A stretch of 64,000 bases of DNA from an uncultured Chloroflexia bacterium (GCA_963763775.1 CAVXPZ010000001.1:160001-224000); one strand, 5' to 3'; numbered from the stretch's first letter, positions 22,820-26,503 are shown. The notes: generated by a model not told the origin, from the sequence alone. Numbers and translations are program-made.

Positions 22820-23881
22820 TCAGGCGGGCGGGTCGTCGCTCCGGACCATCGCGATCGCATTCTCGAGCTTGAGCTTCGCGATCGTCAGGTACTTCGCGAG
22901 GTTGGCTCGATCGACCGAGCCGATCCCATGGCGGACATCGGGGTCGCGCAGGACGTCGATGAGGTCCTCGACCGCGTCGCCCAGTTGCTGCTTGGCGTTG
23001 ACCAGGGAGTCGTCGGTGACCCGGACGGGGGACCGACTGCCTGCCCAGTCATCGGCTTCGGGGGTGCGCGCCTCGACCACCGCGACAGCGGGGGCCACCG
23101 TGGTCTCGACCTCGTCGACCTCGTCGACGTCGTCGATCGCCATGTCCGCTCGGTCGACGCCGGCCCCGCGGGTCGGCCGCGTCCGACGTCCCTCGATCTT
23201 GTCGCGCAACTTGACGAGGGTCAGCTCGCCCCTGGCCACCTGCTCCGCGAGCCGGCGACGCTTCTTCGGGTCCTCGACCTTCATCAGCTCGTAGGCGTGC
23301 GAGAGCGTGTCTTTGCGCAAGGACACGAGCTCGCGGACTTCGGCGGGGGCGTCGGCGAGGCGCAGCCGGTTCTCGAGATAGCCCTTGTCCTTGCCGAGCT
23401 TGTCGGCAAGCTTGCGGATGCTGTAGCCGTGCTCCCGGACCATCCGGTCGTACATCGCCGCTTCATCGAGCGGGGAGAGGTCCTCTCGCTGGAGGTTCTC
23501 GATGATCGCGATCTCCAGCGCCGTGTCGTCGTCGATGTCCTCGATGAGGGCGGGGATCGTCGTGAGACCGGCGATGGTCGACGCACGCCAGCGACGCTCG
23601 CCCGCGATCAACTGATACCGCAGGGCGTCGAGCGGTCGTACGAGGATGGGCTGGAGGACACCGTGCTCGCGGATCGACGCGGCCAATTCGTTGAGGCTGG
23701 ACTCGTCGAAGGCGAGGCGCGGCTGTTCCGGGTTCGCCTCGATGCGATCGATGGCGATGATGCGGACGCCGACCGAGCGGATCGGACCGTCCGACGACAG
23801 CAGGCTGACGATGGCAGGGGAGAGTTCGCGATCCTCGGACAGCCGACGGGCGGCTGCCGCGCGGAAGTCAGGCCGGGACAA
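22820..23881 (-). CDS. parB: ParB/RepB/Spo0J family partition protein
   Basis: NPEQPR, LQPILVR, IAGERRWRA (GxxRxxA), ENLQREDL, HTH; TTG start with GGAGG RBS overlapping the parA end. Confidence 0.93.
   Translation of the reverse strand: MSRPDFRAAAARRLSEDRELSPAIVSLLSSDGPIRSVGVRIIAIDRIEANPEQPRLAFDESSLNELAASIREHGVLQPILVRPLDALRYQLIAGERRWRASTIAGLTTIPALIEDIDDDTALEIAIIENLQREDLSPLDEAAMYDRMVREHGYSIRKLADKLGKDKGYLENRLRLADAPAEVRELVSLRKDTLSHAYELMKVEDPKKRRRLAEQVARGELTLVKLRDKIEGRRTRPTRGAGVDRADMAIDDVDEVDEVETTVAPAVAVVEARTPEADDWAGSRSPVRVTDDSLVNAKQQLGDAVEDLIDVLRDPDVRHGIGSVDRANLAKYLTIAKLKLENAIAMVRSDDPPA
23306..23327. promoter_or_regulatory. palindrome copy 1 (candidate parS) inside parB
   Basis: CGTGTCTTTGCGCAAGGACACG, 22-bp inverted repeat with one mismatch. 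Confidence 0.6.
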
Positions 23882-24638
23882 GGTCCACCACCTCCCGGGC
23901 AAGCTCGCGGTACGTGCGGGCCGCCTCGCTGTTTCCGGCGTACGAGGTGATCGGCCGACCGACGAGCGGTGCCTCACCCAGTTTCACCGTGTTGCGAACG
24001 ATGCTGTTGAAGACGTGATGATCGCCGACCACACGCAGCTCATCGAGCATGTCGCGCGCAAGGTTGGTCCTGGCGTCGAAGAACGTCGGCAGCAGCCCGA
24101 GGATCCGCAGGTCTCGGTTCAACTTCACGCGGATGGCGTTGATGACCTTCACCAGATTGTTGAGGCCCTTCATCGCGTAGTACTGCGTCTGGACCGGGAT
24201 GATCACGCCGTTCGCGGCGACAAGCCCGTTGACGGTCAGCAGTCCCAGGTTGGGCGGGCAGTCGATGAGGATGTAGGCGTAGTCGTCGACGTGACCCTCG
24301 AGGGCCTCGCGCAGGATCTGCTCGCGGCCGAGCGCCGTGAAGAGTTCACCTTCGGTCGAGGCAAGGTCGATGTGCGCGGGCGCGACATCGATGCCGGCGA
24401 TCTCCGTCGGCAGGATGATGTCGGCGAGGGATGACCGGCCGTCCGCGAGGACGTCCGCCATCGAACGCTCGACGGTGTTCAGGTTGATCCCGAGGCCAGC
24501 CGTCAGGTTCGCCTGCGGATCCATGTCGATGCACAGGACGCGGTGACCTTCCTCGGCCAGGGCACCCGCGAGATTGATCGCGGTGGTCGTCTTGCCGACG
24601 CCGCCCTTCTGATTCGCGATCGCGATCACGTTCGTCAC
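23868..24638 (-). CDS. parA: ParA/Soj family ATPase
   Basis: ANQKGGVGKTT deviant Walker A, DMDPQAN, IDCPPNLG, EAP..G. Confidence 0.95.
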   Translation of the reverse strand: MTNVIAIANQKGGVGKTTTAINLAGALAEEGHRVLCIDMDPQANLTAGLGINLNTVERSMADVLADGRSSLADIILPTEIAGIDVAPAHIDLASTEGELFTALGREQILREALEGHVDDYAYILIDCPPNLGLLTVNGLVAANGVIIPVQTQYYAMKGLNNLVKVINAIRVKLNRDLRILGLLPTFFDARTNLARDMLDELRVVGDHHVFNSIVRNTVKLGEAPLVGRPITSYAGNSEAARTYRELAREVVDLVPA

Positions 24639-24742
24639 CGGGGCATCACCTCGAATCCGTGTCGATGGGCTCCCGCGGGCGGCGGGAAGGGGAGCGCGTC
24701 GCGACATGCTACACCCGCGCGTGCGCTCAGCGGATACCCCGG

Positions 24743-24785
24743 TTATCCACACCAACCGGGACTTGTTCACCGAATTTGTGGATAT
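24743..24785. promoter_or_regulatory. DnaA-box cluster
   Basis: TTATCCACA (24743-24751, perfect), TTGTTCACC (24763-24771, weak), TGTGGATAT (24777-24785, one mismatch, reverse). Confidence 0.55.
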
Positions 24786-24884
24786 CCCGCACCACGGATG
24801 CCGGGACGGCGATGTCACCTTCGGCCCGCCCGGACGTGCCGCGGAGCCCTTGGAGCGCCGTCGGCCGCGACTATGATGGTGGCT

Positions 24885-24900
24885 GTCCTTGCGCAAAGAC
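24885..24900. promoter_or_regulatory. palindrome copy 2 (candidate parS/operator)
   Basis: GTCCTTGCGCAAAGAC, identical core to copies 1 and 3. Confidence 0.6.
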
Positions 24901-26476
24901 GCCCAGCCGGAGGACCGACGGTTGCCCACCAACGACGAGCGCATCGCTCGACTCGAGCGGATGCGCGAGGAATTGCGACAGGGCGGAGGCCCGGTCCGCA
25001 TCGAGCGTCAACACACCTGGGGAAAGCTCACCGCTCGCGAGCGACTCGACCTGTTGCTGGATCCCGACTCCTTCGTCGAAGTGGATGCATTCGTGACGCA
25101 TCGGTCGATGGGCTTCGGTCTCGGGGACCAGCACATCCTCGGTGACGGCGTGGTGACCGGGCACGGCACCATCGACGGTCGGCTGGTCTTCGTCTTCAGC
25201 CAGGACTTCACGGTCTTCGGCGGGTCGCTGTCGGAGGCGTACGCGGAGAAGATCTGCAAGGTCATGGATCTGGCGATGAAGGTCGGGGCGCCGATCATCG
25301 GCCTCAACGATTCCGGGGGCGCCCGGATCCAGGAAGGTGTCGCGTCGCTCGGCGGGTACGCCGACATCTTCCTGCGCAATGTGATGGCGTCCGGAGTCGT
25401 GCCGCAGATCTCGGTGATCATGGGGCCGTGCGCCGGTGGGGCGGTGTACTCGCCCGCGATGACCGACTTCACCGTGATGGTGGAGCGAACGAGCTACATG
25501 TTCGTCACCGGCCCCAACGTCGTCCGCACCGTGACCCATGAAGAGGTCGATTCCGAATTCCTCGGCGGCGCGCAGACGCACACGACCAGGAGCGGTGTCG
25601 CCCATCTGGCGGCGAGCGATGAGTCCGAGGCGCTCGATGCCGTGCGGCGAATCCTCGGCCACCTTCCGCAGAACAATCTCGCCGATGCACCTCGTGGCGC
25701 CGACGCGCGACGCGAAGGACCGGATGGATCCGGAGCTGGACTCCGTCGTGCCGGACGATCCGTCGCGTCCATACGACATGCACGACGTCCTGCGGCGCGT
25801 CGTCGACGATGGCGCATTCCTGGAGATCCAGCCCGGTTGGGCGTCGAACATCCTCATCGGTTTCGCGCGACTCGGCGGTCGAAGTGTCGGGATCGTCGCG
25901 CAGCAACCGGCCGTGCTGGCGGGCGCCCTCGACATCGATGCCTCCAACAAGGCGGCGCGATTCGTCCGCACCTGCGATTGCTTCAACGTCCCGATCGTCA
26001 CGTTCGTCGATGTGCCGGGGTTCCTGCCAGGTGTCGGCCAGGAACATGGCGGGATCATCAAGCACGGCGCGAAGTTGCTCTACGCGTATTGCGAGGCGAC
26101 GGTCCCGAAGGTGACCGTCATCACGCGCAAGGCGTATGGCGGCGCCTACGACGTCATGAGCAGCAAGCATGTCCGCGGCGACATGAACTTCGCGTGGCCG
26201 ACCGCGGAGATCGCCGTCATGGGCGCGGAGGGCGCCGTCAGCATCATCTTCAAGGATGCGATCGCGGCGGCCGACGACCCGGTCGCGGAGCGGCAGAGGC
26301 TCGTCGCGGAGTACGAAGAAGAGTTTGCCAACCCGTACATCGCCGCGTCCCGCGGATACGTCGATGAGGTGATCCGACCGTCGGAGACGAGGCCACGCCT
26401 CATCCGCTCCCTCGAGGTCCTGCAGGACAAGCGCGACACCAACCCCAGGAAGAAGCATGGCAACATCCCGCTCTGA
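24889..26476 (+). CDS. pccB: acyl-CoA (propionyl-CoA) carboxylase carboxyltransferase beta subunit, frameshifted near 25690
   Basis: [55 protein letters not shown]. Confidence 0.9.
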
Positions 26477-26483
26477 TCGACCG

Positions 26484-26503
26484 GTGTCCTTGCGCAAAGA
26501 CAC
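26484..26503. promoter_or_regulatory. palindrome copy 3 (candidate parS/operator)
   Basis: GTGTCCTTGCGCAAAGACAC, 20/20 identical to the reverse complement of copy 1 (23307-23326). Confidence 0.6.

Follow-up and report, generated by a model that had tools for sequence, protein, structure and literature searches.

The stretch of DNA analysed here, called the window, comprises 64,000 nucleotides from an uncultured soil bacterium of the Chloroflexia (GCA_963763775.1 CAVXPZ010000001.1:160001-224000) and carries a parAB gene pair, named parA2 and parB2, together with three exact copies of a 16-bp palindrome, GTCCTTGCGCAAAGAC. Comparison of sequences indicates that ParB2 very probably binds this palindrome. 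On balance we also think it probable that the palindromes are the loading platform, 'parS2', of a ParA2-ParB2 system, which in addition touches the promoter of a neighbouring propionyl-CoA carboxylase (pcc) operon. The window corresponds to C1:160001-224000 of a genome of 3,301,890 bp in 4 contigs (71% G+C, estimated 87% complete), and the relatives used for comparison are Chloroflexota of Candidatus Limnocylindria / Limnocylindrales. An original prediction, made from the window, had read the palindrome as the centromere of a ParABS system with a new specificity. Much of that description stands, as the element is a parS-like 16-bp palindrome of a specificity not found in the literature, linked to parAB, clustered and selected at the DNA level; it is not, however, the main centromere near the replication origin (oriC).

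Palindrome positions and selection on the DNA

Site 1 (23309-23324, minus strand) lies within parB2, where its codons (GT)G TCC TTG CGC AAA GAC are read as V-S-L-R-K-D. Site 2 (24885-24900, plus strand) lies in the spacer between parA2 and pccB at the inferred pccB transcription start, and site 3 (26486-26501, plus strand) in the junction of pccB and pccA, starting 10 nt 3' of the pccB stop codon. All three match GTCCTTGCGCAAAGAC exactly, beginning at 23309, 24885 and 26486 as originally predicted, and the placement of the first copy inside the parB coding region was correct. The 16-mer is one mismatched pair short of a perfect palindrome, in agreement with the earlier description of an inverted repeat with one mismatch. 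Identity between sites 1 and 3, previously given as 20 bp, reaches 21 bp by direct reading (GTGTCCTTGCGCAAAGACACG). In the whole 3.3-Mb genome only these three copies, all within 3.2 kb, were found at up to one mismatch, so the earlier observation of no further copy in 64 kb extends to the entire assembly. The next-best genome matches have 2-3 mismatches, and the number expected by chance at up to two mismatches is 0.01 (shuffles; pattern search). Canonical parS and Noc sites had been reported as missing from the window, and this is right, because all their matches in the genome are on contig C3. The claimed overlap with gene starts does not hold for copy 2, which ends 21 nt upstream of the pccB start TTG 24922 and 7 nt past a TATGAT hexamer; as the pccB start is conserved, this copy is non-coding. 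Copy 3 lies 10 nt past the pccB stop, and the start of pccA is uncertain (ATG 26457, GTG 26484 or TTG 26490).

The palindrome, in the form GTCYTTGCGCAARGAC, occupies fixed places in more than 100 species of two families, f1 and f3. We examined 80 loci from different species, with ParB2 proteins 62-77% identical, and counted sites at up to two mismatches. All 241 sites within those loci fell in four places only: inside parB2 (80/80 loci), in the parA2/pccB spacer (at least 70/80), in the pccB/pccA junction (at least 67/80) and in the pccA/mcm junction (at least 24/80), mcm being the methylmalonyl-CoA mutase gene. The last three counts are lower bounds, because contig ends cut some of the loci. 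The present genome has no pccA/mcm spacer and no fourth site, and relatives with such a spacer carry a site there. Family f3, from another order, shares this synteny and carries its sites in the same three places. Pooled half-sites (n=482) were GTCTTTGC in 282 cases, GTCCTTGC in 119 and other variants in 81.

The codons of the parB2-internal site were compared in 81 species with the usage in the same genes, a check on synonymous positions of the VSLRKDT codons which had been proposed for parB orthologues, and rare codons proved to be held in place. Leucine was encoded by TTG in 63/68 cases against a background of 3.8%, lysine by AAA in 50/79 against 3.1%, and serine by TCY in 80/81, with TCT accounting for 41/81 against a background of 2.7%. 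At the other positions the codons were valine GTG (80/80; background 18%), arginine CGC (80/81; 48%) and aspartate GAC (80/80; 83%). Selection on the site inside parB2 acts at the DNA level.

Among 219 departures from the palindrome only one was compensated by a Watson-Crick change, 49 gave G-U pairs in the mRNA sense, and 169 broke the pairing. Across species site 3 falls in different frames with respect to pccA (43, 22 and 2 of 68), the pccB start is at a variable distance from site 2, and an Rfam search gave zero matches within 20000-32000. Taken together, the pattern of arms and frames is best read as the signature of a site recognised by a dimeric protein and not of a hairpin or a peptide. 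The shared reading S-L-R-K-D of the three copies in this genome is a frame coincidence.

ParB2 and its relatives

By its sequence and predicted fold ParB2 is a bona fide ParB-family protein. Pfam profiles ParB_N (1.1e-35) and HTH_ParB (6.9e-18) match it, and both Box II (G67-A73, GERRWRA) and Box III (E101-E106, ENLQRE) are invariant in 14 orthologues. An AlphaFold2 model is confident at residues 10-205, and its best fold match in Foldseek is the Caulobacter ParB-parS complex, 6t1f_D (template modelling score, TM, 0.82; root mean square deviation 2.8 Å; 194 columns), followed by Thermus Spo0J (1vz0, TM 0.80) and Noc (TM 0.71). The nearest solved proteins by sequence are Noc (7ng0, 1.6e-40) and chromosomal ParBs, while KorB is far (8qa8, 1e-14). 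The recognition helix reads GKDKGY(L/V/I)ENR(L/I)RL throughout the five families compared in the class (f1, f2, f3, f69 and f70) and differs from the canonical one at most positions; in the window it is GKDKGYLENRLRL, as against SRARTTVANTLRL in the canonical ParB of the same genome. In all f1, f3, f69 and f70 loci examined, and in 5/8 f2 loci, parA2 lies immediately upstream of parB2.

The same genome has a canonical system on contig C3, with a ParB_N gene at C3:387217 behind a parA gene, parS sites at 385993 and 386099, a further one with one mismatch at C3:370009, and dnaA at C3:420864. The ParB of the window is 41% identical to this canonical ParB over 178 residues, and the two ParAs are 47% identical. 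The parAB genes of the window are thus taken as a second, paralogous pair. The arrangement is seen most fully in a closed relative (G041, OY970218.1, 3,624,741 bp), where canonical parS sites are at 1,027,488 and 1,027,660, the canonical ParB gene at 1,028,704 and dnaA at 1,072,196, and where ParB2 is at 3,365,741 with all four motif copies within 3,361,110-3,366,199. Both loci are on this closed sequence; therefore both systems share one chromosome, and a centromere of a secondary replicon is excluded. The ParB2 locus lies 1.33 Mb, or about 132 degrees, from dnaA, so the expected clustering near oriC was not borne out, and a role as the origin-proximal chromosomal centromere was rejected, the canonical ParAB and parS being near dnaA elsewhere in the genome. 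In four further genomes (G063, G075, G293 and G016) the loci are 0.76-1.85 Mb apart on single contigs, which makes about 125-155 degrees, provided that the stated genome sizes are right. The GC skew of the contigs was too weak for placing origin or terminus.

For the distribution of the system, ParB2 was counted at E<=1e-45 in sampled Chloroflexota families and the motif at up to one mismatch. Within the genus both were present in 24/24 genomes, with 3-4 motif copies each against 0-1 for a reversed-pattern control, and among the matches listed every copy was either next to parB2 on its contig or on a short contig. ParB2 and the motif were likewise found in 15/15 genomes each of f1 and f3, with 1-4 motif copies per genome, and second sets gave the motif in 17/17 and 20/20, respectively. 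Scanning the genome and its relatives, as had been suggested, thus showed the motif clustered at parAB2 in f1 and f3, and not scattered. In f2, ParB2 was present in 2/2 and 16/16 genomes and the motif in 1/16, with 0/3 in a second set. Families f69 and f70 had ParB2 in 5/5 genomes; the motif occurred as single matches in 11/19 genomes of f69, and in 1/1 of f70. Other Chloroflexota families had no ParB2 (0/268), and their motif matches (35/268; one or two per genome, each with a single mismatch) resembled those of the control. ParA2/ParB2 was found in every Limnocylindria genome searched, that is all 32 sampled from the class as well as the 5/5 of f69 and f70, and the cassette is kept even in streamlined genomes of 1.1 Mb.

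A wider subfamily with a GKxKGY helix was found in a library of 1.84 billion representatives, and in a quick tree 24 such proteins separated from 16 canonical ParBs with a Shimodaira-Hasegawa-like approximate likelihood ratio of 99. Members from other lineages stand behind a parA gene and have a repeated palindrome of their own in or beside parB. Locus L174 (helix GKGKGYIEDRLRL) has three copies of GTCTGGACGTCCAGAC, two of them inside parB and read as VSGRPD, and L181 (helix GKGKGYVEKRLYL) has three copies of GTCTCCCGTGGGAGAC, two of them in the linker and read as LSPVGD. L172 and L177, both with helix GKSKGYVQNR(L/M)RL, have 2 and 5 copies of GTATTTCCAGAAATAC, respectively, and L173 (helix GKSKGYVQNRMRL) has a single copy of GTATTTGCGCAAATAC. 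On the 241-kb plasmid NZ_CP128402.1 of Ca. Chlorohelix allophototropha (helix GKDKSYIENRLAL) two copies of GTCTGTATATACAGAC lie 37 and 121 bp past the parB stop, and they are the only ones on the plasmid at up to two mismatches. A search of PLSDB gave no ParB2 orthologue above 49% identity. Arms of the form GT(C/A)T...A(G/T)AC are common to the subfamily, and the 8-bp core changes with the helix residues EN, ED, EK and QN. Although a correlation only, shared arms with helix-linked cores provide the strongest argument that the palindromes would be cognate ParB sites.

Repeated peptides (VSGRPDT, SLRKDT, SYFQKYD and LSPVGD) were observed in otherwise unconserved linkers of P0047, P0042, P0046, P0057, L172 and L181. 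Where the DNA is held, such linker peptides are translations of the 16-bp palindrome of the lineage itself. Sites in these lineages are thus encoded within the disordered linker of the very protein presumed to bind them.

Proposed function and alternatives

Under the explanation we favour, a ParB2 dimer would read one GTCYTTGC half-site per helix-turn-helix through the altered helix GKDKGY(L/V/I)ENRLRL. With GERRxRA and ENLQRE intact, the protein is predicted to close as a clamp dependent on cytidine triphosphate (CTP), which may spread over a zone of about 3-6 kb from parB2 into the pcc-mcm operon. ParA2 would act on the complex and so position this region of the chromosome. Occupancy of site 2 probably lowers transcription of the propionyl-CoA carboxylase/methylmalonyl-CoA operon in the manner of KorB, because the site is at or just past the inferred pccB start, and at the -35/spacer in f3.

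The surroundings of site 2 are conserved. In the window a cluster of DnaA-box-like elements (24743..24785) consists of TTATCCACA at 24743-24751, TTGTTCACC at 24763-24771 and TGTGGATAT at 24777-24785, and TATGAT (24872..24877, plus strand), the inferred -10-like hexamer of a rightward pccB promoter, is part of the conserved block CTATGATGG. All 21 aligned spacers from the genus (21/21) have the same succession of a probable parA2 -10 element, the DnaA-box cluster, CTATGATGG and site 2, and the cluster is laid out as TTATCCACA, 8-9 nt (mostly 8), GTTGTTCACC, 5 nt and TGTGGATAT. At least one forward and one reverse DnaA box at up to one mismatch were present in 66/75 wider loci, and f3 too has a TTATCCACA box. 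The perfect box has 3 copies in the whole genome, one of them adjoining dnaA. This suggests that DnaA controls the locus. Of 70 loci, 50 have a -10-like hexamer ending 4-25 nt before site 2, compared with 0.3% of random windows. In f3 the site is 7 nt upstream of TATACT, before a tRNA-Met gene and pccB, and covers the -35/spacer. One of the 3-4 sites of a locus overlaps the inferred promoter.

Several observations weigh against the favoured explanation. A strict scan of the parA2/pccB spacer for a sigma-70 consensus and terminators found none, and what argues for a promoter is therefore the conserved -10-like hexamers only. A position 125-155 degrees from dnaA is an unusual place for a chromosome centromere. 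The canonical ParA-binding motif of ParB is LG(R/K)GL (PMC12704722). ParB2 lacks this motif and begins MSRPDFRAAAARRL, with MA(K/R)PDFR in relatives, and the canonical ParB of the genome carries SLGRGLASL. The C-terminal domain, modelled as all-helical with two long helices at 263-320 (predicted local distance difference test 81-90), has no sequence likeness to the canonical one. Family f2 keeps the recognition helix unaltered, yet only 0-1/16 of its genomes had a motif match at up to one mismatch. There parB2 reads VAERSDT in place of VSLRKDT, and the parA2/mcm spacer has only a degenerate palindrome, GTCYKCGCRCACGGAC. Three f2 genomes of 1.1-1.4 Mb (G025, G027 and G028) have parB2 directly beside mcm and have lost parA2, so that ParB2 must have a role independent of ParA. 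In f69 and f70 no site was found at up to three mismatches within about 6-7 kb of parA2-parB2, which lie apart from pcc and mcm. Motif-like sites of f69 are clustered at a selB-pepA-UvrD/PD-(D/E)XK helicase-MFS locus in two genomes and are otherwise single, and the contig of this cluster is neither that of parA2B2 nor that of the pcc operon. The motif follows carboxylase genes in none of these three families, yet it is not always beside parB2.

Some details of these families may be added. The two f69 clusters (G344:C4:1462-6519 and G356:C156:15717-19802) hold 4 and 3 sites within 5 kb. The order in the 1.1-Mb f2 genomes is orf-parB2-parA2 and a divergent mcm-epimerase, without pccBA between them. 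Nothing convincing emerged when the vicinity of parB2 in f2 and f69 was searched generically for repeated palindromes. Matches with three mismatches, GTATYTGCGCARATAC, one each in G025, G027 and G028, fall within a conserved Rieske/SCP2 gene and were attributed to conservation of the coding sequence; GTATYTGCGCARATAC resembles the site of the L173 type.

It is also conceivable, if rather unlikely in our estimate, that ParB2 is mainly a transcription factor, a CTP clamp like KorB or VirB, with the sites as operators of pcc-mcm and parA2B2 and with little or no partition. In f1 (+1 region) and in f3 (-35/spacer) site 2 falls on the inferred core promoter, parB2 stays beside mcm-epimerase in f1, f2 and f3, the three f2 genomes hold parB2 without parA2, and ParB-family CTP clamps which regulate transcription are known, as far as the accessible parts of the sources tell, from KorB, VirB and BisD. 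Against this, most sites lie within genes or at 3' junctions and not at promoters, and among the matches listed the sites of a genome form one cluster rather than marking several promoters; parA2 is kept in all examined genomes but the three, and the relatives on plasmids and in metagenomes resemble ordinary partition cassettes. Moreover, the f69 operon pccB-pccA-mcm-epimerase lacks both a site at up to four mismatches over 20 kb and a parAB2 in its vicinity. This siteless operon rules out the plain carboxylase operator, which had been put forward as the alternative to a centromere. That the palindrome serves another regulator of carboxylase or biotin genes, the copy in parB2 being incidental, is accordingly given very little credence: two of three copies do flank carboxylase genes, but the copy inside parB2 is the most conserved (80/80), other ParB2-like genes carry palindromes of their own beside unrelated neighbours, and no DNA-binding regulator is recognised by Pfam in 13190-34710 and 36228-37643, where three open reading frames (ORFs) are without family match.

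The cassette might alternatively be the relic of a plasmid or integrative element acquired by a Limnocylindria ancestor, of no use to its present host. A subfamily member on a Chloroflexota plasmid, a tRNA-Met gene beside parA2 in f3, f69 and f70 and the location away from the origin would fit this, but it is quite improbable considering the presence of the pair throughout the sampled class, its retention in streamlined genomes, the invariant motifs of ParB2 and the sites held against strong codon bias in 81 species. Least credible of all is a hairpin in RNA or DNA, for instance a signal for processing or attenuation, or else conservation of the peptide SLRKD. The sequence can fold into a 6-bp stem, and all three copies are in frame as S-L-R-K-D in this genome; both ideas were ruled out by the arm changes, which mostly break pairing, by the variable frame of site 3 and the Rfam result, and site 2 is non-coding.

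Returning to parS2 as a loading platform, a bolder extension can be formulated, which we put forward as a speculation with the odds against it. Limnocylindria would keep on their single chromosome a second, non-origin centromere-like module, which serves to position a region on the terminus side and acts beside DnaA boxes as a CTP clamp gating the pcc/mcm operon, and the subfamily would write its diversified sites into its own coding sequence ('VS-x-R-x-DT', repeated linker peptides). If true, this would amount to a natural, readable code, in which 2-3 residues of the recognition helix are set against the 8-bp core of a GT[CA]T-N8-A[GT]AC palindrome.

ParA2-ParB2 shares with canonical ParABS systems the ParB_N domain with GERRxRA and ENLQRE followed by a helix-turn-helix, the fold, a parA gene immediately upstream, a 16-bp palindrome with central CG and a site within parB itself. 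In Bacillus subtilis, spo0J also carries an internal parS. The system differs in that the site matches canonical parS (TGTTTCACGTGAAACA) at 6/16 positions by direct reading, the helix is altered, LG(R/K)GL is missing and the C-terminal domain is all-helical, and in that its chromosome also holds a canonical system, dnaA being about 132 degrees away from the ParB2 locus in the one closed genome. Noc of Firmicutes is likewise a lineage-restricted chromosomal ParB paralogue with a 16-bp palindrome of its own, and a Noc structure (7ng0) is the best sequence match to ParB2 among those solved. Noc is not known to have a ParA partner, and its many sites are dispersed along the chromosome, whereas ParB2 has ParA2 adjacent and 3-4 sites, clustered among the matches listed, and scores 191.6 bits against the NCBIfam cut-off for Noc of 315. 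A few residues of the helix-turn-helix region can reprogram ParB/Noc specificity, according to the part of Jalal et al. (2020, PMC7383237) that was accessible.

The Burkholderiales Bsr parS sites (parS-c2, parS-c3 and parS-pBC) are, in the available portion of PMC5450999, described as 16-bp palindromes of related ParB families, each palindrome having an arm rich in T and a 6-bp core made up of 2C/2G/1A/1T around a central CG. Compared by this rule only, and to the extent the excerpt gives it, the ParB2 site with its core TGCGCA obeys the format of both Bsr and canonical parS. Specificities have diversified within one ParB family in both cases, but the Bsr systems serve separate replicons, whereas ParA2-ParB2 shares its chromosome with the canonical system. 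The TGCGCA core may also be that of parS-c2. KorB-OB of plasmid RK2, judging from partial sources, also combines a ParB-family protein with a ParA partner, and its palindromic site can sit at promoters; KorB is a distant relative, and the ParB2 sites are at one locus only. No KorA- or TrbA-like partner turned up at the locus, though no dedicated search for one was made. A further parallel, annotated only, is the Chlorohelix cassette, which belongs to the same ParB subfamily and has parA upstream and a GTCT-N8-AGAC palindrome twice after parB; it is plasmid-borne, its core is GTATATAC, and its ParB is 44.7% identical to ParB2 over residues 8-202.

No study of this plasmid cassette was found in the literature, nor any paper on such a ParB in Limnocylindria or on the motifs in a bacterial context, supplementary files being outside the search. 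Second or dual ParABS systems were met there, in the accessible parts of the sources, as cases of secondary chromosomes and plasmids only. The locus would add a new, well-supported natural pair of ParB and site, with at least five sister pairs of the same arms and different cores. Such pairs are material for the evolution of ParB specificity and for the avoidance of cross-talk between two systems per cell, and they could supply orthogonal ParB/parS tools for DNA labelling. It is unusual for a single chromosome to hold two ParABS-type systems, of which the second is about 130 degrees away from the origin and was present in all searched genomes of an uncultured class, and this poses the question of the role of a non-origin centromere. 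A site on the inferred promoter of a central-carbon operon, beside DnaA boxes, may connect chromosome biology with metabolism. In annotation, 'parAB' is unsuitable as an oriC marker in these genomes.

Gene content of the locus

The starts of parB2, parA2 and pccB were placed from the sequence and a cross-species alignment. The parB2 gene (22820..23881, minus strand) encodes 353 amino acids (aa) from a TTG start at 23881 after GGGAGG, and its product consists of ParB_N, HTH_ParB, a disordered linker and the all-helical C-terminal domain. The parA2 gene (23868..24638, minus strand; GTG start at 24638) encodes a ParA/Soj-type ATPase with KGGVGKT (Pfam AAA_31, 5.7e-62), and its end overlaps the start of parB2 by 14 nt. 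Divergent from these two, according to Pfam, runs pccB-pccA-mcm-epimerase, followed by sucCD on the opposite strand. On the plus strand, pccB (24922..26476) encodes a carboxyltransferase from TTG 24922 after GGAGGA, with the Pfam Carboxyl_trans halves in two frames; pccA (26484..28844) encodes a biotin carboxylase with a biotin carrier domain (CPSase_L_D2, Biotin_carb_N/C, Biotin_lipoyl); and mcm (28841..30526), the next gene of the operon, matches MM_CoA_mutase at 5e-226.

The frame break of pccB is between 25695 and 25703 by tblastn against an intact orthologue. A second break was seen in a gene for UbiA prenyltransferase (22066-22795) between the ORF at 21540 and parB2, where profile positions 26-81 and 125-243 are in different frames. 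Orthologues of both genes are intact in relatives, and the occurrence of two breaks within 4 kb suggests assembly indels and not pseudogenes.

No tRNA was detected by ARAGORN in 15000-36000 of the window. The tRNA-Met genes beside parA2 (anticodon CAT, by-eye reading) were seen in f3 (L158-L160) and in f69/f70 (L151, L154, L156 and L157), and are possibly a trace of an old integration site. No homologue of the 121-aa ORF at 21540-21905 was found near parB2 in f69 and f70. The ORF is without a Pfam family, adjoins the 3' end of parB2 in f1, f2 and f3 (37-81% identical), and possibly belongs to the module too.

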